Position numbers and translations under genes: made by a program. From Trichlorobacter lovleyi SZ (GTDB lineage Bacteria > Desulfobacterota > Desulfuromonadia > Geobacterales > Pseudopelobacteraceae): a stretch of 32,000 nucleotides of DNA. The stretch spans positions 1,680,001 to 1,712,000 of the forward strand of contig NC_010814.1 of the NCBI RefSeq assembly GCF_000020385.1. The letters are read 5' to 3'. Shown one piece after another: positions 11,139 to 27,205 of the stretch. The notes under the pieces were generated by a model. The model had not been told where the DNA came from and did not search any database. It saw only the letters and a program-made list of their open reading frames with translations. How positions within the stretch are numbered: position 1 is the first letter of the stretch; each line of letters begins with the position of its first letter.

Positions 11139-11528
11139 ATGGAATTTCCGGAAGAACTGAAATATTCCAAGGAACATGTCTGGCTGAGGATTGAAGGAAA
11201 CCGGGCCGTGGTGGGGATTACCGACTTTGCCCAGGAAGAGCTGGGCACCATTGCCGCAGTAGAGCTGCCGGACGAAGGTGATCAGGTGGAGCAGGAAGAC
11301 TCGATGGGCTCCATTGAGGCCCGCAAGACCGTGGCGGAACTGTATGCTCCTGTAACCGGCACGGTGCTGGCGGTGAATGAAGAGGCTGTGGATACCCCTT
11401 CGTTGTTGAATGATGATCCCTATGACGGCGGCTGGCTGCTGGAACTGGAGCTGGAGGACCGGGATGAGCTGAAGGCTCTGATGTCGGCTGATGATTACGC
11501 TGACTATGTCGAAGACAAGGATGTATAA
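11139..11528 (+). CDS. gcvH: Glycine-cleavage H-protein family lipoyl carrier (no gcvT/gcvP in the window)
   Basis: YSKEHVWLRIEGNRAVVGITDFAQEELG; lipoyl-Lys context IEARKTVAELYAPVTG (Lys63, nt 11325-11327). Starts 3 nt after the accC stop. Confidence 0.85.
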   Translation: MEFPEELKYSKEHVWLRIEGNRAVVGITDFAQEELGTIAAVELPDEGDQVEQEDSMGSIEARKTVAELYAPVTGTVLAVNEEAVDTPSLLNDDPYDGGWLLELELEDRDELKALMSADDYADYVEDKDV

Positions 11529-11552
11529 AACAACTTTCAGGTATGCTATAAG

Positions 11553-11587
11553 AAGGGCGGGATGACTATCCCGCCCTTTTGCGTTTT
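11553..11587 (+). terminator. Rho-independent terminator after gcvH
   Basis: Stem AAGGGCGGGA / TCCCGCCCTT with a 6-nt loop, followed by TTTTGCGTTTT. Confidence 0.8.
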
Positions 11588-11751
11588 ATTCCGATTTTAT
11601 TTAAAGATCCTATCTTTGTTGGTTCGTTTTGGGCTCCTCAACGCGCCGGTTGTACGCCTGCGTCGCCAAAAAAAACTTGCCGCCTTGATATCATCCTCGA
11701 ACTGAATGGGAATTGCAGGGCGACACGTTGAGAGTAGTGTGAGGTGCGGTT

Positions 11752-13251
11752 GTGAAGAATCTTCTGGTGGTTGTGCTGATATTGGGTTTCGGTGCGGTTA
11801 CTGAACTACAGGCTGAACCGGTTCGGTTGACCATGGCTGATGCCGTAAAAATGGCAGTTGAAAAAAATCTTGATCTGCGGGTGGAGTTATACAACCCTGC
11901 CCAACAGGAGGCTGAGTATCAGAAAAGCCGCGGGATCTACAATCCGACCCTTACCCTGCAGGCAAGTTATAATGATACAACATCCTACTCTGCCAGCCGG
12001 CCATCAGGCAGATACTGGAATAATAACAGCCAGCTGAACGCCGGTATCAGCCAGCTGCTGCCCAGTGGTGCCACTGCTGCACTGGGATTCAATAACAGCT
12101 ATCTTTCCTCCGACGTAACCTCAACCTCAAGCGGATTATCATCCTACTGGCAGTCAAGTCTGGGGGTGACCCTGAACCAGCCACTGCTGAGAAACTTTGG
12201 CCGTGAACCCACCGAACTGACGATTGATACTGCTCGTTTGACTAAAGAAGCCTCCCTTGAAAAGTTGAGTAGCAAGCTGATCAGCGTCGTGGCTCAGGTA
12301 CGGACCGAGTACTATAAGCTCTACAGTCTGCGGGAGGAGTTGAGCGTCAGGAAAGTCTCCCTTGAACTGGCTCGCCGTGTTCTGAGTGAGACCCAGGCCA
12401 GGGTCAAGGCCGGTGTCATGCCTGCCATGGAGACCCTGAATGCTGAATTCGGTATGGCCAGTCGTGAGAAAGAGCTGATTGACGCTGAGCGGGCAGTGCA
12501 GGATCAGGTTGATGTGCTGGTGCAGTTGCTGCAGCTGCAGCCGGCACAGGGGCAGGACGTTGAAACCGTTGAAGTTCCCTCAAAGGGGCGCTATGAAGTA
12601 TCGGAGCAGGCGGAGATCAAGCGTGCCCTGAGTAACCGGCCGGAGCTGAAGGAGCTGAAGCGCAATCTGGAGCTGCTTGAACTGCAAACCAGGGTGTCCG
12701 GCAACAGGACCCGTCCGGACCTGTTGCTTTCTGCCTCTGCAGCAACAGCCGGTCTTGGTGATACCTATCCTCGGGATCTGGATCGTCTTTCTTCAGGCAC
12801 TTATCCGGCTTGGGGAGTCGGGCTGAGTTTCAGCTATCCCTTGGGAAACCAGGCCGCAGAGAATGACTATCGCAAAAATCGTTTGAAGCTTGATCAGTCG
12901 GCCCTGCAGATCCGAAACCAGGAAGAGTTGATCGCCAATGAGGTCCGCTCGGCAGTGCGGGCGATTGAGGCGAACTACAAGCAGCTTGATGTGGCAGACC
13001 GTGGACGGGCCTTTGCCGAAGAACGGTTGCGGGCCTTTGTACGCAAGGCAGAGGTCGGGCTTGCCACAACCAAGGATGTGCTTGATGTGGAGAACGACCT
13101 GGCTACCGCCAAAAATAACCAGATCAAGGCGCAGGTCGCCTATGCCAATGCCATCACCCAGCTCTGGAAGGCAACCGGCGAGATCCTTGCCAAAGAACAG
13201 GTCCGGATGGTAACCCTTGATCCGGACTCACTTTACAAAGGTATGAACTGA
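11752..13251 (+). CDS. TolC-family outer-membrane efflux protein
   Basis: GTG start with a GAGGTG RBS. Signal peptide MKNLLVVVLILGFGAVTELQA. Two OEP-type repeats are present (LTMADAVKMAVEKNLDLR...; ALSNRPELKELKRNLELLELQ...). Confidence 0.85.
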   Translation: MKNLLVVVLILGFGAVTELQAEPVRLTMADAVKMAVEKNLDLRVELYNPAQQEAEYQKSRGIYNPTLTLQASYNDTTSYSASRPSGRYWNNNSQLNAGISQLLPSGATAALGFNNSYLSSDVTSTSSGLSSYWQSSLGVTLNQPLLRNFGREPTELTIDTARLTKEASLEKLSSKLISVVAQVRTEYYKLYSLREELSVRKVSLELARRVLSETQARVKAGVMPAMETLNAEFGMASREKELIDAERAVQDQVDVLVQLLQLQPAQGQDVETVEVPSKGRYEVSEQAEIKRALSNRPELKELKRNLELLELQTRVSGNRTRPDLLLSASAATAGLGDTYPRDLDRLSSGTYPAWGVGLSFSYPLGNQAAENDYRKNRLKLDQSALQIRNQEELIANEVRSAVRAIEANYKQLDVADRGRAFAEERLRAFVRKAEVGLATTKDVLDVENDLATAKNNQIKAQVAYANAITQLWKATGEILAKEQVRMVTLDPDSLYKGMN

Positions 13252-19942: not shown

Positions 19943-21105
19943 AAGAGATCTATCTGGACAATAACGCCACCACCAAGGTGGATGAAGCGGTCTTTGAGGA
20001 GATGAAGCCGTACTTCTGCGAGCTGTATGGTAACCCCAGCTCCATGCACTACTTCGGCGGACAGGTGCAGAGCAAGGTGACCGAGGCTCGTAAACGTGTG
20101 GCTGACCTGCTGGGGGCCTCGCCGGGGGAGATCATCTTTACCGCCTGCGGCACCGAGAGTGATAATACCGCGATCCGTTCTGCCCTTGAGGTGCTGCCGG
20201 ACCGTCGTCATATCATCACCAGCCGGGTCGAACATCCGGCTGTGCTGACCCAATGCCGCAACCTGACTGCCAAAGGCTACCGGGTTACCGAGATCGGGGT
20301 GGATGGCGCAGGCCGTCTGGACATGGATGAATACAGGAAGGCGATTGACGACGATACCGCGATTGTTTCCTTTATGTGGGCCAACAACGAGACCGGTGTC
20401 ATCTTTCCGGTTGAAGAGGCGGCTGCCATTGCCAAGAAAAACGGCGCCCAGTTTCACACCGATGCAGTCCAGGCAGTGGGTAAGATCCCGATCAACATGG
20501 CTGAGTCAAAGATTGACATGCTCTCCCTGTCCGGACACAAACTGCATGCTCCCAAGGGGATCGGGGCACTGTATGTCCGTAAAGGCACACCGTTTCGCCC
20601 GTTGATGGTTGGCGGCCACCAGGAAAAAAGCCGCCGTGCCGGTACCGAGAACGCCGCTGCCATCATTGCGCTGGGTAAGGCCTGCCAGCTGGCCGGTGAG
20701 TTTATGGAGGCGGAGAACACGACGGTCAAGGCCAAGTGTGAACGTCTGGAAAACGCGCTGATGGCTGCCGTTCCCCATGCCCGTATTAACGGCGGCGGTG
20801 CAGAGCGTCTACCGAATACCACGTCGATCGCCTTTGAATTTGTGGAAGGTGAGGCGATTCTGCTGCTCCTGTCAGAGTTGGGAATTTGCGCCTCTTCCGG
20901 CAGCGCCTGTACCTCCGGTTCTCTGGAGCCGTCCCACGTGCTGCGCGCCATGGGAGTGCCATTTACCTGCGCTCACGGTTCAATCCGCTTTTCGCTTTCA
21001 CGCTACACCACCGATGCCGAGATTGATGCTGTTATTAAAGAGATGCCGCCGATTATTGCCCGTCTGCGGCAGATGTCTCCATTTGGACGGGAGTTTCTCA
21101 AGTAG
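19939..21105 (+). CDS. nifS: Cysteine desulfurase NifS
   Basis: PLP-Lys motif SLSGHKLHAPKG, catalytic Cys loop SSGSACTSG. ATGA overlap with nifU. Confidence 0.93.
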   Translation: MKEIYLDNNATTKVDEAVFEEMKPYFCELYGNPSSMHYFGGQVQSKVTEARKRVADLLGASPGEIIFTACGTESDNTAIRSALEVLPDRRHIITSRVEHPAVLTQCRNLTAKGYRVTEIGVDGAGRLDMDEYRKAIDDDTAIVSFMWANNETGVIFPVEEAAAIAKKNGAQFHTDAVQAVGKIPINMAESKIDMLSLSGHKLHAPKGIGALYVRKGTPFRPLMVGGHQEKSRRAGTENAAAIIALGKACQLAGEFMEAENTTVKAKCERLENALMAAVPHARINGGGAERLPNTTSIAFEFVEGEAILLLLSELGICASSGSACTSGSLEPSHVLRAMGVPFTCAHGSIRFSLSRYTTDAEIDAVIKEMPPIIARLRQMSPFGREFLK

Positions 21106-21136
21106 GCCGCCTGTTGGCATATTGCGATCAGATCAT

Positions 21137-21172
21137 GAAAAAGCGGAGCCCTGTGCTCCGCTTTTTCATTTC
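21137..21172 (+). terminator. Rho-independent terminator after nifS
   Basis: 13-bp stem GAAAAAGCGGAGC / GCTCCGCTTTTTC with loop CCTGT and a T-rich tail. Confidence 0.85.
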
Positions 21173-21197
21173 TGGCTGCTGCAATCACTGCTGAAAC

Positions 21198-21206
21198 TGG
21201 TATACT
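21198..21206 (+). promoter_or_regulatory. Putative extended -10 promoter (TGgTATACT) upstream of the WD40-caspase gene
   Basis: TGG-TATACT lies at 21198-21206, 40 nt upstream of the ATG at 21246. No good -35 is present. GGGGAG RBS at 21235-21240. Confidence 0.4.
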
Positions 21207-21245
21207 GTCTGCCAGTTAGTATGAGACCTCTACCGGGGAGTTCGG

Positions 21246-24200
21246 ATGAACCGCCTGCTTATTCTGCTGATATGCTTCTGTGCCGCGCTGCCCCGGATAC
21301 CGGTCCATGCAGGACAGCCTCCGCTTACGCCAACCATCAGGATTCAGACTGATCTGCACAGCGCCAAAATTATGGACGCATCTGCCAGTGGTGATGGCGC
21401 CCTGCTGGCCACCGCCTCGGCTGACAAGACGGTAAAACTCTGGGAAACTGCCAGCGGCAGATTGCTCAGGACCATCAGGCCGCCAATTGCAGCAGGGAGC
21501 GAGGGAATGCTGCATGCCGTTGCCCTTAGCCCCGATGGCAGGCTGGTTGCTGCTGCCGGCTGGACCGGAGTAAGCTGGGACGGCAGTTACTCGGTCTATC
21601 TGTTTGATACCTCCAGTGGCGAGATGCGTCAGCGGCTAACCGGTTTTCCCAAACCGCTCAAGCGACTTGCGTTCTCGCCGGACGGCAAAAAACTGGCAGT
21701 CGGTCTGCATAGCTCAGGCGGTGTCTATCTGGTCAGGGTGTCAGACGGTAAGCGGCTGATGTTTGATGCATCCCTTAACGGCACCTGTTTTGGTCTGGTT
21801 TTTGACCAAAAGGGGGGGCTGCTGGCCGGTAGCGACCAGGGGCAGCTCTGCCGCTATACTCCAGATGGTGCACGGGTGTATGTCGTGCAGACCGAGGAAC
21901 GGACTAAACTACTCTCCATGGCTCTTTCACCTGATAGCAGGTATCTGGCCTTGGTTTACGGCGATGGTCATCAAGTTGAACTGCGTACAGCGGCAGACGG
22001 CAGGTTTGAGAGCGTACTGCAACGTCCCGGTGGACGTTTCTTCAGTGTGGCCTGGTCCCGTGACGGCAAACAGATTCTGGCTGCCGGCAACCTCAAGGCC
22101 GAGGATGGGCGCAAGCTGCTGGTAACCTGGTCCGCTGAACAGCGTCGCCCTCAGGAGTTGGTGCTGTTGCCGAGCAAGAGCGGCATTACCCAACTACTTC
22201 CGTTGCAGAATGGAGCACTGGCCGTTGTCTCCCGCTTGACCGGTTTCGGGCTGCTGACTCCTGAGGGCAGTACCACGGTTCTGTCTGCAACAGAGGCGGG
22301 ACGGGGGAAAAAGCCGGGACTGCGTAATCTTGCAGTATTGGAACGCCAGCCGGCTTATTTTCATCTTCTGGCAACGGCGGATTTTCAGAAGAACCATGAC
22401 CTGTTCCGGATTACGGCCGATGCGGCTTCCGTGCTGTTCAGCTACGAACGCAACGGTCAGGCACCAGCCAGGTTTGACCTGAAAAAGAGGCGTCTGGTGG
22501 CAGTAAGCCCTTCGATGGAAAACCTGATGCCTCACCGCTTTACTGCGGAGGGGCTTGATGTCCAGCACTGGCAGGGAGGGGCTCAGCCGTTACTGAATCG
22601 TGTCCCCCTGACTGGTTTCATACCTCTTGAACGTAGCCAGAGTCTGGCAATCCGTCATGACGACAAAGGGTTTGTTCTGGGTACCAGTCACTTCATCCGC
22701 GCCTATTCTGCCAAGGGAGCACTCCTTTGGAAGAGCAGGACGCCGTTTACGGTCTGGGACGTTGCCTTGTCGGCCGATGACAGTATGTTGGTTGCGGCAC
22801 TGGATGATGGCAGTATCCGTTGGTTTCGCATGCTGGACGGCAAAGAACGTTTTGCCCTATTTCCGCATCCGGACAGAAAACGCTGGATTCTCTGGACCCC
22901 GGACGGTTTTTTTGATCATGGCGATGGTTCGGAGAACTTGATCGGCTTCCAGATGAACCGTGGCGCTGAGCAGGCTGCGGTCATGGTCGGCGCAGAGCGT
23001 ATGTTTGATCTGCTGTATCGGCCTGATCTGCTGGACAGGGCAATTGCCGGTGAAGACCTTAGCCCGTACCTGCAACGCTTGCAGATACGGGCCGACGGCC
23101 GGATGGCCCTGGCTGTGCCTGACAGTCACATGGTGCCGGTCGCGGCCCAGAAAAAACAGACAGATCAGGGAACGCGGACCGGGGGACAGCAGGACGCTCA
23201 GGAACGGCAAGTCAGGCCGGCTCAGGAGCAGGCGGCTGCAGAGCAGAAGGGGCTCTTGGCTGCTGAAACGGCACGTACCGGCATGCAACAGGGGGATGCC
23301 GGGCAACTGCCGCAACAACAGGCAGAACCGCTTGACGAAACGGAGCAGGAAACTGAACTGCCGCCGACTGTGGAGACCGAAGCGGAGCAGGCCGAACCGA
23401 AGACGGCGTTGGCCAGTCTGGTCACGGCGGCAACAATGCCGCCCAAGGTAAGGTTTTTAACGGCATCAGGCGTAACCGGCCTGCGTGACATGCGGTTGCA
23501 GGCAGAGCTGTGTGATGCCGGTGGCGGTCTTGGTGATGTAACCCTTTATCTCAACAAGATGCCGATCGTCTTTGAACAGTCACACCGGGGTCTGGTTGCG
23601 CTCGAGAAAGGCCGGAAAGGTGACTGCATCAGTTTTGAGCGGGTCGTTACCCTGACTGCCGGTGAGAATCAGATTGAGCTGATGGCGTTTAATCGGGCCA
23701 ACAGCATTGAGTCTGAACGCAGCCGGATTGTCGTGCGCTATAATGCGCCGGAACCGGCTAAACCAAGGCTGCATCTGCTTACCATTGCGATTAACAGCTA
23801 TCAGGAAAGGACACTGGGGCTTAAGTACTCGGTCAATGATGCAGATAACGTGGCAAAACTGGTTGCCGAAAAGGCCCAGAAACTCTTTGCCGGAGTTGCT
23901 GTCTATCGCCTCTCTGACCAGCAGGTGACCAGACAGGGCTTGGAGCAGGTCTTTGCAGAGATCAGCGTCAAGGTAGAGCGGGGAGATGTGTTTGTGCTCT
24001 TTCTGGCCGGTCATGGCCTGACTGATGAGCTTGACGGCATGTACTATTTTCTTCCGGCAGATTTCCGTCTCAATAATGGAGTGTCTCTTGCCCGCCAAGG
24101 GATATCAATGCATGATTTCAAACAGTACATCAGTTCGATCAAGGCCACGAGGAGTCTGTTCCTGATCGATACCTGCAGCAGCGGGGCATTCAGTGAAGGG

Positions 24201-24512
24201 ATGGCGGGGCAGACCACCGCTGAACACGCTGCCCTGAACAAGCTGGCTCGCAGTGTTGGCAGGGCGACTTTGGCTGCCAGTTCCCGCGATCAGGTTGCCC
24301 TGGAAGGACATCAGGGACACGGAGTCTTCAGCTATACCCTGCTGCAGGGACTGCAGGGGGCAGCGGCCAACAAATCAGGGCGTATTACCATCACCAACCT
24401 GGCCCTGTTCGTGGAAGAAACCCTGCCGGAGCTAACCATGAAAAAGTGGGGTTATGAACAGATGCCGCAAAAGGCTCTGATCGGTTCAGACTTTCCAATC
24501 GGGATAAAGTGA
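21246..24512 (+). CDS. Secreted multidomain protein: signal peptide, WD40-like beta-propeller region, Q/E-rich linker, beta-sandwich-like region, caspase-like peptidase C14 domain
   Basis: Signal peptide MNRLLILLICFCAALPRIPVHA|G. WD40-like repeats: LATASADKTVKLWETASGRLL, LSPDGRLVAAAG, FSPDGKKLAVG, LSPDSRYLALV, WSRDGKQILAAG, VAALDDGSIRWFRMLDGKE, WILWTPDGFFD. C14 domain from about aa 840 (LHLLTIAINSY...NDADNV...). Catalytic His is in FLAGHG (His923, nt 24012-24014) and catalytic Cys in LIDTCSSG (Cys977, nt 24174-24176). GHGVFSYTLLQGLQG follows. Confidence 0.85.
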   Translation: MNRLLILLICFCAALPRIPVHAGQPPLTPTIRIQTDLHSAKIMDASASGDGALLATASADKTVKLWETASGRLLRTIRPPIAAGSEGMLHAVALSPDGRLVAAAGWTGVSWDGSYSVYLFDTSSGEMRQRLTGFPKPLKRLAFSPDGKKLAVGLHSSGGVYLVRVSDGKRLMFDASLNGTCFGLVFDQKGGLLAGSDQGQLCRYTPDGARVYVVQTEERTKLLSMALSPDSRYLALVYGDGHQVELRTAADGRFESVLQRPGGRFFSVAWSRDGKQILAAGNLKAEDGRKLLVTWSAEQRRPQELVLLPSKSGITQLLPLQNGALAVVSRLTGFGLLTPEGSTTVLSATEAGRGKKPGLRNLAVLERQPAYFHLLATADFQKNHDLFRITADAASVLFSYERNGQAPARFDLKKRRLVAVSPSMENLMPHRFTAEGLDVQHWQGGAQPLLNRVPLTGFIPLERSQSLAIRHDDKGFVLGTSHFIRAYSAKGALLWKSRTPFTVWDVALSADDSMLVAALDDGSIRWFRMLDGKERFALFPHPDRKRWILWTPDGFFDHGDGSENLIGFQMNRGAEQAAVMVGAERMFDLLYRPDLLDRAIAGEDLSPYLQRLQIRADGRMALAVPDSHMVPVAAQKKQTDQGTRTGGQQDAQERQVRPAQEQAAAEQKGLLAAETARTGMQQGDAGQLPQQQAEPLDETEQETELPPTVETEAEQAEPKTALASLVTAATMPPKVRFLTASGVTGLRDMRLQAELCDAGGGLGDVTLYLNKMPIVFEQSHRGLVALEKGRKGDCISFERVVTLTAGENQIELMAFNRANSIESERSRIVVRYNAPEPAKPRLHLLTIAINSYQERTLGLKYSVNDADNVAKLVAEKAQKLFAGVAVYRLSDQQVTRQGLEQVFAEISVKVERGDVFVLFLAGHGLTDELDGMYYFLPADFRLNNGVSLARQGISMHDFKQYISSIKATRSLFLIDTCSSGAFSEGMAGQTTAEHAALNKLARSVGRATLAASSRDQVALEGHQGHGVFSYTLLQGLQGAAANKSGRITITNLALFVEETLPELTMKKWGYEQMPQKALIGSDFPIGIK

Positions 24513-24519
24513 GGCGTAC

Positions 24520-25938
24520 ATGACACATAATTACTTATTGACAGTTATCCTCTTTGTCTGGTGTTTGCTGATTCCGCTTCAGTCCCATGCCTTCTGGTCC
24601 ACAGAACCCGGCTCATTGAAGGAGTTGGCAGCCGGTGTGGCAACTGAGTTGAAGGAAAAGTCCGGTTCAGCCGGGAAGAAGCTGTATCTGGATAAGGCCA
24701 ATGTCAAGGATAGTGTCAGTGGCGAGACGTCAAACCTCTCTGCCTTTCTGGTCAATGAGCTGGAAAGTGCCCTTTCGTCCGCCGGCTTCAGCTTTACTGA
24801 TTTTATGGAGCAGGCGGATCAGGTGGTGGGAGCCAGTTATCAGCGTGACGGCGACCGTTTGCGAATCTTCATAAAATACTGCCCGGCAAAAGACAGTAGC
24901 AACTGCAAGAGCCTTGCTGCGGCATTGGAAATGAACAGGCTTCCCAAAGAAAGTTTCAGTGAGTCGATGGACAGCAGATTGAAACGGCTGGTGCAGAAGG
25001 CGGCTGGTAGCAAGAGTGGTCTGAAGGTTTTTATCAGCCCGGTTGTTGAGCGCAGGAACCGTTATGCAAGTGAGTTTTCCGAATATGTGACAGCCAAGGT
25101 CCGAAGCTACCTGGTCAACGGCCAGCAGTTTGAGGTGCTGGAGGAATATCCGGTCACCCGCTCTCTCTCAAATACCCGCGGCTTGGCAGCCAAGGCGAAA
25201 CAGGTACAGAATCTGGAAACCAGCGCAGCCCTGTTCAGCGGTGCTGACGCAGTGCTGGAGGGATACTATCTTGAGGGTACCGGCAGGGTTACTGTTGCCG
25301 TTACCCTCAAAAATCTGAAGGGTGGGGTGCTGGGGAGCGCCGACGAAACCTTTGAACGGAGCATGATCCCTTACAGTACGGCCAACCAGGCCGCCGGTAC
25401 GTTGGCTGCCGTGGCGGATGTAGCTGGCCAGGCCAGCCAGCAGACGGTAAAATTAAATACCACCAAGGGGGATCGCTATCAGGTCTATCGGGTTGGTGAA
25501 AAGGTACAGTTTCTGATGCAGGTCACCAAACCGTTGTATGTCTACCTGTTCGGTATCAACGCCAAAAATGAAGTCAGCCAGCTCTATCCTGGGCCAGGAC
25601 AGCAACAGGTGCCCCTGCAGGCCGGTCTGATTCATACTGTTCCAGGTGATAGGGATAGCTGGGAGATTGTGGTGGAACCCCCCTTTGGCACAGATGTAGT
25701 CAAACTGTTTGCTGCTGAGAAGCCTCTGCCGGTACCGGCTATTTCCAACAAAGTGTCAGCCAGAAGCTTTAGTGATGGTACCCGCTCACTGGCGCGCCGG
25801 GATGTCATCCAGCAGCAGCTGGCGGTACAAAAGACCATCAATGGGTTTGATCTGGTGGATTATTTCAAGGGGGTGGCTGAACAGCAGGGGCTGACACTGT
25901 ATGAAGACAGCCTGTTTGTGCAGACCAGACCGCAGTAG
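24520..25938 (+). CDS. Secreted DUF4384-domain protein with two N-terminal LpoB/CsgG/FlgO-like modules
   Basis: Signal peptide [24 protein letters not shown]|F. The DUF4384-like core is [36 protein letters not shown]...[10 protein letters not shown]. Two upstream modules have the pattern (K)LYL/VFISP...xxS.FS.(F/Y)(L/V)...L......F...(GA(S/D))...(RIF/VTVAV). Starts 7 nt after the caspase gene stop. Confidence 0.7.
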
Positions 25939-25948
25939 GAGCCACACA

Positions 25949-27205
25949 ATGGAGATCCGTATCCCGACAGCAGGTGAGTCTGTGGTTGAGGCGCTGCTGG
26001 CCAAATGGCACAAGCCGGATGGTAGCATGGTTTTGAAGGATGATGCGATTTGTGAGATTGAGACCGATAAGATTACCATGGATATCTATGCAGAGGTTTC
26101 CGGCCGCCTGGTAATTCACGTTCAGGCTGGTACAACCCTGCCGGTGGGCACCGTGGTTGGCCGGATTCTCGAAGCAGATCCGCAGGCAGAGGATCAACTG
26201 GCTGTTACAGCAACAGGGGCGGCTGGATCAGCGGATGCACCAACCTCTCCGGCAGTGCGGCAGGCGTTACGGCAACAAGGTCGAACTGCCGCGCAACTGG
26301 CAGGTAGCGGCCCTGGCGGCCGGATACTGATGAACGATCTGAAACGGACGGATACACCGGAACCTCCAGCGCCAGCGCTTCCGGCTGCTCTGCACGCGAT
26401 GCTGGTTAAGTCTGAGGAAACACCGGTGTATCGGGCTTCAGGCTGCTGGAAACCTGCTCGACCGGCCGGAGATCAAAACACTGAAAAAGCCACAGAAGCC
26501 GGGCCTGATCCACAGGCTGCGCCAGGTGAAGAGCGGATACGGATCTCCCCGCTACGCAAGCGGATCTCTGAGCGGCTGCTGCAGGCTCGTCACCAGACCG
26601 CCACGTTGACCACCTTTAACGAGGTTGATATGGGGGCATTGCAGGCCTTGCGCACAAATTATAAGCTGGCCGGTCAGCCGGTCGGCTTGCTGCCGTTCTT
26701 TGTCAGGGCTACGATTGAGGCATTACAGGCTTATCCGGCAGTTAATGCGCGGATTGATGGTGATGAGATTGTGTATTACCATGTTCAGCATCTGGGTATT
26801 GCTGTCTCCTCTGAAAAAGGGCTGATGGTGCCGGTGCTGCGCGATGCAGGTCAGCTGGGCTTGTGGGAGATTAATGAGGGCATAGCGGGTCTTGTGCAGA
26901 AGATCAGAGCCAACCAGCTGGCCATTGCCGACCTGGAAGGTGGAACCTTTACCATCAGCAATGGCGGCACCTATGGTTCCATGCTCTCGACCCCCCTTAT
27001 TAATCCACCCCAGAGTGGTGTGTTGGGAATGCACGCCATCCAGCACCGGCCGGTGGCACGGAATGGTCAGGTGGTGATACGTCCGATGATGTATCTGGCC
27101 TTGTCCTATGACCATCGCCTGATTGATGGCAGGGAGGCGGTCGGGTTTCTTAAGCTGATCAAGGAGCGGTTGGAGAACACTGGCTGGTTGGCTGGACTAA
27201 ACTGA
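25949..27205 (+). CDS. sucB: Dihydrolipoamide succinyltransferase (E2 of the 2-oxoglutarate dehydrogenase complex)
   Basis: Single lipoyl domain with ETDK (Lys41, nt 26069-26071). E3-binding segment [12 protein letters not shown]...[13 protein letters not shown]. Catalytic core LTTFNEVDM...[13 protein letters not shown]. The AGGAG RBS overlaps the upstream stop codon. Confidence 0.9.

Follow-up and report, generated by a model that had tools for sequence, protein, structure and literature searches.

A predicted exported caspase-type protease is genetically coupled to a conserved LpoB-fold/DUF4384 protein in Trichlorobacter lovleyi

Introduction

The described systems closest to the one reported here are the orthocaspases and metacaspases of peptidase family C14, the bacterial gasdermins with their caspase-like proteases, and the Craspase of type III-E CRISPR systems. 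To our knowledge, the bacterial caspase homologues whose function is understood all act in the cytoplasm (gasdermin activation, Craspase, studies on cyanobacterial orthocaspases), and all characterized orthocaspases and metacaspases are cytoplasmic. The surveys known to us hint that a large fraction of the bacterial caspase homologues carry export signals, and we know of none among these with an assigned role. Here we analyze a locus of Trichlorobacter lovleyi SZ (NC_010814.1, positions 1,680,001 to 1,712,000; this stretch of 32,000 nt is called the window) in which the gene of a predicted exported protein with WD40 propellers, an immunoglobulin (Ig)-like domain and a C14 protease domain (open reading frame 1, ORF1) directly precedes the gene of a second predicted exported protein with a DUF4384 domain (ORF2).

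Two elements of this picture are already known: the WD40-C14 family is large, and exported prokaryotic caspase homologues were predicted in 2012 (PMC3501461). In that survey, Asplund-Samuelsson et al. reported that many prokaryotic metacaspases have N-terminal helices which are "likely signal peptides", predicted an extracellular localization, and identified WD40 as the commonest accessory domain (PMC3501461). Reviews on cyanobacteria discuss membrane-bound forms with extracellular WD40 domains, and in our searches signal-bearing WD40-C14 proteins of about 950-1100 amino acids (aa) were abundant in metagenomes. An earlier note on this DNA had started from the premise that caspase homologues with WD40 or TPR modules are cytoplasmic; in view of the 2012 prediction and the metagenome proteins this premise is overstated. 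The same note stated that no characterized example of such an extracytoplasmic system was known. This statement stands, since literature searches for periplasmic, secreted or exported bacterial caspases and metacaspases returned no characterized example. Literature searches also found no description of a linkage between C14 genes and genes of DUF4384 proteins; few papers mention DUF4384.

The bacterial gasdermin-caspase operons resemble our locus in that a conserved partner gene lies beside variable caspase-like proteases with repeat or sensor domains. Unlike in these operons, both proteins are here predicted to be exported and the context consists of housekeeping genes (nifUS, and E2-lpdA for a 2-oxoacid dehydrogenase) and not of a defence island. 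An assignment as a gasdermin-protease defence system was rejected: there is no gasdermin, and ORF2 matches only DUF4384 and folds into LpoB-like and Ig-like domains. The type III-E Craspase (Csx29-Csx30) likewise pairs a clan CD protease with a DUF4384-bearing protein, in this case one group of Csx30. This assignment was also rejected, because the syntenic locus shows only housekeeping neighbours and no CRISPR-Cas, RpoE or Csx31 genes, and the protease is a C14 and not a TPR-CHAT protein. The predicted setting, moreover, is extracytoplasmic, and the DUF4384 domain described for some Csx30 proteins is the sole link between the two systems.

Results and Discussion

A constant DUF4384 gene next to a variable protease gene

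The sample comprised 26 genome loci and 47 metagenome loci (numbered L001 and so on) that encode relatives of ORF2. The six-frame ORFs of these loci were searched with profiles of the C14 domain, the propeller, the Ig-like domain and the ORF2 family; synteny was mapped by tblastn. In the Geobacteraceae the gene order pgm-nifU-nifS-X-DUF4384-(E2)-lpdA is conserved, while the content of the slot X varies. The slot holds at least four cassette states plus an empty one. A WD40-Ig-C14 gene like ORF1 is found in the window and in L001/L037, L002, L007, L008, L013, L017 and L046, and a WD40-C14 gene that is only 33-34% identical to ORF1 in L010 and L039. Unrelated, shorter exported C14 genes, which encode an N-terminal caspase domain and the mature N-terminus ADTRGLRVVAKD, occupy the slot in L009, L018, L020 and L038 and occur as a second gene in L017; some of these shorter proteins carry Lcl_C or FGE-sulfatase domains. 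Only short C14 fragments are left in L040 and L041. Finally, the slot is empty in L014, L031, L042, L045, L047 and L048, with nifS nearly abutting the DUF4384 gene.

The DUF4384 proteins are 72-92% identical where the homologues of ORF1 are 33-94% identical, and their identity follows the housekeeping flanks and not the type of cassette; they are better conserved than ORF1 throughout. The DUF4384 gene is thus the constant element of the locus, and the upstream caspase gene is an exchangeable and dispensable accessory. The idea of the earlier note that a WD40-caspase and a DUF4384 protein form a dedicated module is not supported, because the caspase is swapped, decayed or missing upstream of the constant gene.

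The C14 fragments, of 78 and 67 aa (L041 7672-7905; L040 upstream of 207), lie directly upstream of the DUF4384 gene and seem to be what is left of a caspase cassette that has decayed. In one Geobacter lineage (L002/L003/L012, about 11465-12099) a toxin-antitoxin pair of the PhD/YefM-PIN (VapBC) type has been inserted precisely between the genes of the WD40-caspase and the DUF4384 protein. The mature N-terminus ADTRGLRVVAKD of the cassette caspases from L009, L017, L018 and L020 directly follows the predicted cleavage site of the signal peptide and contains the same tetrapeptide, TRGL, that is conserved in the disordered loop of ORF2 (219-222).

Linkage to C14 genes outside the Geobacteraceae

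An adjacent C14 gene on the same strand was found in 19 of the 31 non-redundant groups that had at least 3 kb on both sides of the DUF4384-family gene. To these adds one CHAT case, a Desulfovibrio (L026), where the DUF4384-family gene is located two genes upstream of a gene for a CHAT lipoprotein. Close to the DUF4384 gene, at a distance of up to 1.5 kb, C14 ORFs are about 26-fold denser than in the more remote parts of the same loci. The two genes occur in the opposite order in L021 and L025/L063, in unrelated contexts; the DUF4384-family gene adjoins other C14 genes in L030, L032, L061 and L072, and in L006 it is placed between two C14 genes, one of which encodes a C14-PEGA-FGE-sulfatase protein. 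A single Magnetococcales protein (L027) fuses C14 to the module of LpoB-like, DUF4384 and C-terminal domains. The frequent adjacency in the well-flanked groups and the fusion bear out the statement in the earlier note that DUF4384 co-occurs with C14. Its proposal to survey gene neighbourhoods gave a divided answer: the DUF4384 family does lie near C14 genes, but secreted WD40-C14 genes are not consistently followed by a DUF4384 gene. A 47%-identical homologue of ORF1 has no DUF4384 neighbour and is accompanied instead by a TPR-PDZ-C14 gene and an unknown gene of 153 aa. The rule that a WD40-C14 gene is always followed by a DUF4384 gene was discarded, since homologues with 31-36% identity have OmpA-like/vWA, multiple C14, ABC-transport or TIR-TPR neighbours.

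Some of these distant neighbourhoods deserve a separate description. On an Accumulibacter contig (L036 5583-7325) the distant WD40-C14 homologue is encoded beside a TIR-TPR protein; in L033 (4688-5998 and 8891-10651) the neighbouring genes code for one OmpA-like and one vWA/YfbK protein. L034 (1-11487) contains five consecutive C14 genes on the same strand, namely two for C14-FGE-sulfatase proteins, one for a WD40-C14 protein and two others; this cluster shows a local expansion of presumably exported caspase paralogues. Outside of the Geobacteraceae synteny, L060 (4314-9419) harbours a 38%-identical DUF4384-family gene beside homologues of E2 and lpdA, in divergent orientation.

The conclusion from these results that we consider robust is a genetic coupling between an exported metacaspase-type protease with an intact catalytic site and an LpoB-fold/DUF4384 protein that is conserved and likewise exported. 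It is highly probable that the exported, active-type C14 protease is also functionally linked to the DUF4384 protein. We judge it very improbable that the two have no functional relation at all. The region between nifS and the DUF4384 gene would then be an insertion hotspot, the C14 genes would be abundant and mobile paralogues in these genomes, and ORF2 would be an independent envelope protein that is expressed together with E2-lpdA. This explanation can account for the empty slots and the C14 remnants, for the toxin-antitoxin pair that was also inserted in the slot of L002, for the other neighbours of the distant WD40-C14 homologues, and for the distant DUF4384 homologue that is likewise found beside E2-lpdA in L060. 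It does not sit well with the observation that, the toxin-antitoxin pair aside, only C14 genes fill the slot, with at least three unrelated architectures. The adjacency furthermore recurs in non-syntenic contexts and with either gene first; the two genes invariably share a strand and are fused in one case, and the enrichment of C14 ORFs close to the DUF4384 gene also speaks against chance insertion.

ORF1 combines two propellers with an intact C14 domain

The domain structure of ORF1 was derived from Pfam searches and from an AlphaFold2 model, which was built on 66 homologues and has a mean predicted local distance difference test (pLDDT) score of 83.7 and a predicted template modelling score (pTM) of 0.78. 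Pfam detects WD40 and other beta-propeller families across residues 35-320. In the model an N-terminal helix, corresponding to the signal peptide, is followed by unbroken four-stranded blades from residue 30 to about 600, mostly with a pLDDT above 90, and the best Foldseek matches of the N-terminal 600 residues are double seven-bladed propellers (2ymu, Aip1 1nr0 and Apaf-1). The stretch of some 550 aa of WD40-like blades that had been read from the sequence alone is therefore confirmed. The propellers are the presumed ligand- or partner-binding region of the protein. The similarity to Apaf-1 and the apoptosome lies in the combination of a double seven-bladed WD40 propeller with caspase-family proteolysis. 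Unlike Apaf-1, ORF1 has neither an NB-ARC/STAND ATPase nor a CARD, and its propellers and protease are placed on one exported chain; the likeness is architectural only.

The linker behind the propellers has a pLDDT below 50 at residues 621-650 and 676-711. It is conserved neither in length nor in sequence: its identity is 10-36% in homologues with an overall identity of up to 64%, and 73% in the 90%-identical protein P0002. The isolated Ig-like domain that follows the linker gave no match in Pfam and is therefore not detectably a copy of DUF4384.

Peptidase_C14 (PF00656) matches residues 845-1075 with E 4.8e-15 and 56.3 bits (cutoff 21.4), and none of the 66 aligned homologues deviates at the catalytic residues H923 and C977 or at D865 and D975. 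This agrees with the claim of an intact C14 dyad in the earlier note. A profile of the C14 domain retrieved from the PDB the metacaspases Yca1 (E 1e-11), Candida MCA1, AtMC4 and TbMCA2 as well as GSU0716 (3BIJ), and more weakly MALT1. Metacaspases with Arg/Lys specificity are thus its nearest relatives of known structure. Only this multi-family profile reached the metacaspases; when the sequence of the C14 region itself was searched against the PDB, there was no match. Foldseek with the whole model of ORF1 was flooded by WD40 propellers and uninformative on the Ig-like and C14 domains.

With the orthocaspases and metacaspases (MEROPS C14B; MaOC1, Yca1 4F6O, TbMCA2 4AF8, GSU0716 3BIJ) ORF1 shares the p20-type caspase-haemoglobinase domain with the His-Cys dyad. 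It also shares the acidic S1 pocket formed by the Asp of the "ND" motif and the Asp of the "DxC" motif. In a comparison at the sequence level, D865 and D975 align with the aspartates in "IND" and "DSCHSG" of Yca1; from this alignment a specificity for Arg or Lys would be expected. What distinguishes ORF1 from these proteins is that the whole protein is located behind a signal peptide of the cleavable type, that the sensor domains are N-terminal to the protease, and that a conserved exported partner is encoded next to it. The loop 988-1004 of the C14 domain, which has a low confidence in the model and contains conserved Arg residues (LARSVGR), is a possible candidate for an autoprocessing linker.

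Searches of NCBIfam and PADLOC gave no assignment to a system. The generic "caspase" model of PADLOC matches the C14 domain of ORF1 (44 bits) and has no match to ORF2. An EACC1-associated caspase (NCBIfam NF047832; Kaur et al. 2020) was rejected, because the score of 70.3 bits is below the cutoff of 140 and the neighbours are nifS and the DUF4384 gene, with no EACC1-like transmembrane protein.

ORF2 combines LpoB-like domains with DUF4384

For ORF2 a full-length match to DUF4384 (PF14326) was obtained with E 7.2e-21 and 74.5 bits (cutoff 27), so that the beta-rich DUF4384 core proposed in the earlier note is real. The domain is preceded by two domains which, in the AlphaFold2 model (pLDDT 83.6), resemble LpoB (4q6z; Foldseek probability 1.0, TM-score 0.69 normalized to the target, 18% identity) and also GNA1162 (4hrv). 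Matches to KaiC-type proteins were ignored, as their root-mean-square deviation exceeded 20 Å. The fold of the two N-terminal domains is common to LpoB, which is the activator of the penicillin-binding protein PBP1B, to the N-terminal domain of TolB and to CsgG-like and FlgO-like domains, all of which are periplasmic. ORF2 differs from LpoB by the low identity, by the duplication of the domain, by the additional DUF4384 and unique C-terminal domains, by the lack of a match to the hidden Markov models of LpoB, CsgG or FlgO, and by not being a lipoprotein. A classification of ORF2 as a member of the LpoB family was thus rejected: the likeness concerns the fold only, there is no LpoB match in Pfam or NCBIfam, and the signal is that of a signal peptidase I (SPI) substrate without a lipobox. 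Pfam searches with the isolated C-terminal domain and with the LpoB-like region gave no match, and the ORF2 profile had none among the sequences of the PDB.

The C-terminal domain is the most conserved part of the family, with D444, L445 and V446 invariant, and is preceded by a conserved TRSL motif (R422). A conserved loop at 210-222 (LSNTRGL) in the second LpoB-like domain has a pLDDT below 50. An exhaustive profile search placed about 2,800 clusters in the family at E <1e-3 and 43 at E <1e-30; across the Geobacteraceae the homologues of ORF2 are 65-98% identical. Longer relatives add CsgG-like, FlgO-like or PG_binding_1 domains, and one relative is a kinase-FHA protein with two copies of DUF4384. 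In L061 (1179-2492) and L071 (6591-7790) a second, shorter paralogue of 400-438 aa is encoded directly in front of the DUF4384-family gene; its match, with E about 1e-10, is confined to the LpoB-like N-terminal part of the family.

Both proteins carry export signals

Export was judged from sequence features and from a comparison of homologues. Both N-termini show the n/h/c layout of a signal peptide, in ORF1 with MNRLLILLICFCAALPRIPVHA followed by G (VHA/G) and in ORF2 with a peptide of 24 residues followed by F (SHA/F). A hydrophobic core near the N-terminus is present in 55 of 64 homologues of ORF1, where its position is conserved and its sequence is not, and in 17 of 18 homologues of ORF2. 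None of the homologues of either protein that were checked has an internal transmembrane-like segment. The residues right after the predicted cleavage sites are conserved in both families; the mature ORF2 starts with FWSxxPxSLKEL. Many relatives of ORF2, including distant ones, have a lipoprotein signal peptide with a lipobox instead, and the C14 and CHAT proteins that are encoded beside DUF4384-family genes have an SPI or lipobox N-terminus in every case examined.

The distribution of cysteines is in agreement with an extracytoplasmic location. C756 and C794 of ORF1 are both present in 21 homologues and both absent from 45, and no homologue has only one of them; for C121 and C129 of ORF2 the respective numbers are 14, 4 and 0. 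Such a perfect co-variation is consistent with disulfides, although each pair probably goes back to one event in evolution. The LpoB/CsgG-type fold of ORF2 and its relatives with peptidoglycan-binding domains also suggest the periplasm. We consider it very likely, on these features, that ORF1 and ORF2 are exported, which is in keeping with the Sec signal peptides that the earlier note had seen on both proteins; we infer a periplasmic location for both.

It is very unlikely that the N-terminal segments are uncleaved signal anchors which tether the bulk of the proteins on the periplasmic side, or that the proteins travel on to the surface or the medium. The 2012 survey could not separate N-terminal transmembrane helices from signal peptides (PMC3501461), and the cleavage sites given here are predicted from the layout of the sequence; both points leave room for a tether. 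However, both h-regions, with about 12-16 residues, are short and lead into Pro and a small-x-small motif (VHA/G, SHA/F), and the conservation of the mature N-termini immediately behind the sites is typical of cleaved SPI signals. The annotation of the syntenic locus shows no secretion-system genes nearby, which also speaks against this reading.

A proposed role of the pair

The best explanation that we can offer for these data, which we put forward tentatively, is that variable periplasmic sensor-caspases with Arg/Lys specificity act on or with one conserved envelope partner. ORF1 and ORF2 would be two Sec-exported envelope proteins that work together. The catalytic domain of ORF1 would hang, via the flexible linker and the Ig-like domain, from the double WD40 propeller as the binding or sensing part. 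Binding of a periplasmic ligand to the propeller, or to another sensor domain, would activate the caspase domain to cleave the DUF4384 protein at exposed Thr-Arg-(Gly/Ser)-Leu sites, after the Arg, in the loop 219-222 and the linker 421-424 of ORF2. Cleavage would change an envelope function that is carried by the DUF4384 protein. The system would then follow a principle of "many sensor-proteases, one target", with differing exported C14 proteases converging on the constant ORF2. Arg/Lys specificity, a physical interaction and the cleavage of ORF2 are predictions of this scheme. The part which makes the DUF4384 protein the substrate or target of the caspase is, if anything, slightly more doubtful than the scheme as a whole. 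The roles suggested in the earlier note, that is the propeller as a sensor and the DUF4384 protein as a substrate, inhibitor or anchor, are plausible.

The candidate cleavage sites come from a motif analysis. ORF2 contains three [ST]R[GSA][LIV] motifs where 0.19 are expected, for a motif that was defined post hoc. Two TR[GSA][LIV] motifs are found throughout the family; of 25 sequences, 22 retain R220 in the disordered loop and 23 retain R422 in the interdomain linker. Both residues are Gln only in the protein in which C14 is fused in cis. A precedent for the substrate idea, by analogy, is one group of Csx30, the substrate of the caspase-like Csx29, which has a C-terminal DUF4384 domain; DUF4384 is also often fused to proteases (bioRxiv 10.1101/2022.08.17.504292).

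A rather different role is that of an adaptor or anchor. The DUF4384 protein would then not be cleaved and would serve as a periplasmic docking platform that places caspases at the cell wall or the outer membrane or presents substrates to them. We regard this as unlikely, though as the foremost competitor of the target model. The LpoB/TolB-N/CsgG fold of ORF2 is typical of envelope-docking lipoproteins, many members of the family are indeed lipoproteins, and some relatives carry PG_binding_1 and CsgG-like domains. Kinases and proteases, too, can carry DUF4384 as a C-terminal module, and the C14 fusion in L027 resembles a protease with a built-in targeting module. Lipoprotein adaptors of envelope proteases are known, for example NlpI for Prc and LbcA for CtpA; in both cases an envelope protease has a dedicated non-catalytic periplasmic partner, as would be the case here. 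Unlike ORF1, Prc and CtpA are serine C-terminal processing proteases, their genes are usually not adjacent to those of the partners, and it is the adaptor that varies and provides specificity. Since in the known pairs the protease is constant and the adaptor varies, the combination of variable proteases with a constant partner at our locus fits a common target better than an adaptor. The adaptor model furthermore leaves the conserved exposed Arg motifs without an obvious role, and ORF2 of the window has an SPI signal and not a lipoprotein signal.

The DUF4384 protein could also be an inhibitor or immunity protein, which silences exported caspases in the envelope of the producer; the proteases might then act outside of the cell or on competitors. 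Pairs of this kind are AprI with alkaline protease and the staphostatins with the staphopains. The tight coupling of the gene downstream of the protease gene is in favour of this idea. The partner is also indifferent to the accessory domains of the protease, which would suit a protein directed at the conserved active site of C14, and the exposed conserved loops with Arg could serve as pseudo-substrate loops. But the protein, with about 450 aa and four domains, exceeds the known dedicated protease inhibitors by far in size; it persists at loci that lack an adjacent protease, and the gene order is reversed in some lineages. In searches of Pfam, NCBIfam, the PDB and Foldseek it has no similarity to any known inhibitor family. 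An inhibitor is hence quite unlikely, more so than an adaptor.

We rank the target model above the adaptor, the inhibitor and the absence of any relation, but several observations weigh against it. The linkage counts overstate the number of independent events, because many of the linked Geobacteraceae loci share ancestry. In 6-7 loci of the Geobacteraceae and about 10 other lineages the DUF4384 gene persists although no C14 gene adjoins it; the protein must therefore have a function of its own or be served in trans. The pair is co-oriented with and translationally coupled to the E2-lpdA housekeeping genes, unlike a self-contained system. The TR[GS]L motif was defined with the data already in view, and the exchange of R for Q is an observation from one lineage. 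Lastly, DUF4384 is fused to kinases and to other proteases as an apparent binding module, and this suits an anchor or adaptor no less than it suits a substrate.

A still wider reading, which we consider to be unlikely, is that the locus is an instance of an extracytoplasmic caspase surveillance system, in which exported caspases with interchangeable ligand-binding domains converge on one LpoB-fold/DUF4384 effector by cleavage between TR and G or S. The interchangeable domains would be WD40 propellers, C-type-lectin-like Lcl_C or FGE-sulfatase domains, PEGA and TPR-PDZ. The cues, in the periplasm or on the surface, would be for example phage parts, competitor toxins or envelope damage. Such a system would be the periplasmic counterpart of the cytoplasmic logic of caspase-gasdermin and Craspase-Csx30, and the rapid turnover of cassettes in the slot between nifS and the DUF4384 gene would reflect an arms race.

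The locus offers a testable handle in a cultivable Trichlorobacter/Geobacter lineage, with an exported active-type caspase, a candidate partner and candidate cleavage sites. The swapped, fused and empty cassettes are natural "experiments" which predict the component that is the constant target. If the link is true, it would provide a first function for DUF4384 and for the LpoB-fold/DUF4384 family and would widen caspase-type signalling to include the envelope of bacteria. Should the adjacency be incidental, the locus encodes two uncharacterized, ordinary exported proteins.

Gene arrangement and neighbouring genes

Synteny with T. lovleyi CP058409 extends over the entire region, and ORF1 is 94% identical to a "caspase family protein" of T. 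lovleyi. The positions of the features are given in Table 1.

Table 1. Positions of genes, domains and sites of the ORF1/ORF2 locus in the window.
Feature	Position	Strand	Basis or remark
Intrinsic terminator hairpin after nifS	21135-21175	+	GCGGAGC-loop-GCTCCGC flanked by A5/U5; RNA folding
Possible extended -10 element, TGgTATACT	21198-21206	+	Read by eye only; 40 nt before ORF1 start; not reported by sigma-70 consensus scan
Shine-Dalgarno sequence of ORF1, GGGGAG	21235-21240	+	5 nt before ORF1 ATG; sequence reading
ORF1 (1088 aa), predicted exported WD40-propeller/Ig-like/peptidase C14 (orthocaspase-type) protein	21246-24512	+	ORF list, Pfam, AlphaFold2
ORF1 signal peptide, residues 1-22 (MNR / LLILLICFCAAL / PRIPVHA, then G)	21246-21311	+	Sequence reading; homologues
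Tandem WD40 beta-propellers, residues about 30-600	21333-23045	+	Pfam, AlphaFold2, Foldseek
Variable Q/E/A-rich linker, residues about 601-725	23046-23420	+	Disordered with one long helix (AlphaFold2)
Ig-like beta-sandwich, residues about 726-837, with Cys756/Cys794	23421-23756	+	All-beta in AlphaFold2 model
Peptidase C14 domain, residues 838-1088	23757-24509	+	PF00656; profile search
His923 codon	24012-24014	+	In FLAGHG
Cys977 codon	24174-24176	+	In DTCSSG
ORF2 (472 aa), predicted exported protein with two LpoB-fold domains, DUF4384 and conserved C-terminal domain	24520-25938	+	ORF list, Pfam, AlphaFold2
ORF2 signal peptide, residues 1-24, cleavage after QSHA	24520-24591	+	Alignments
Two alpha/beta domains like the LpoB C-terminal domain (TolB-N/CsgG fold), residues about 33-137 and 150-280	24616-25359	+	Foldseek
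DUF4384 domain, residues 322-402, Ig-like beta-sandwich	25483-25725	+	PF14326; all-beta model; Ig-type Foldseek matches
Small C-terminal alpha/beta domain, residues about 427-470, INxxDLVDYxxG...LYEDSxxVxTR	25798-25929	+	Alignments, AlphaFold2
ORF2/E2 junction	25935-25952	+	AGGAG Shine-Dalgarno sequence over ORF2 stop; likely E2 ATG at 25950

Both ORFs were found in the ORF listing exactly as described before. They are separated by 7 nt, and the GAGG Shine-Dalgarno sequence of ORF2 overlaps the stop codon of ORF1. Since the stop-to-stop ORF does not begin before 21225, no in-frame start precedes the ATG of ORF1. On the 5' side, nifS ends at 21105 and a hairpin closes the upstream pgm-nifU-nifS unit; the structure at 21135-21170 folds with -28.5 kcal/mol (z -6.9), none of 200 shuffled sequences folds as well, and a U-run follows. 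A scan for promoter and terminator consensus sequences missed this terminator and reported no promoter upstream of ORF1. Of the terminator-promoter boundary which had been claimed for the 5' side of the pair, the terminator is hence supported by the folding energy, while the promoter is only a possible one, with an extended -10 element read by eye as the sole candidate.

The idea that the pair is an autonomous unit did not survive, as there is no boundary on the 3' side and the pair is coupled to the downstream E2-lpdA genes. The E2 gene starts 11 nt after ORF2, at about 25950, and is followed by lpdA and then by the gene of an aconitase. The same consensus scan, which had failed to report the strong nifS terminator, found no terminator-like site at the ORF2/E2 junction. 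The tight junction is also present in T. lovleyi and other Geobacteraceae. An Rfam scan of 20900-26200 detected no RNA element.

Several minor observations concern the neighbouring sequences. Several further ORFs (90-190 aa) run across nifS and ORF1, either in a different frame or on the opposite strand (20777-21352 on the plus strand, and others in 21200-24100); they are unsupported and, at a GC content of 56%, are presumed to be artefacts. The E2 ORF as listed begins at 25901, within ORF2; its true start codon is probably the ATG at 25950, which an AGGAG precedes. Several Geobacteraceae have no E2 gene, and the DUF4384 gene runs directly into lpdA there. The E2 gene of the window (25901-27205) is only 73% identical to that of T. 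lovleyi (compare L001 14701-16576), with flanking genes that are all 92-100% identical. The T. lovleyi locus contains, between E2 and lpdA, an extra gene of 204 aa without a Pfam hit that is missing from the window.

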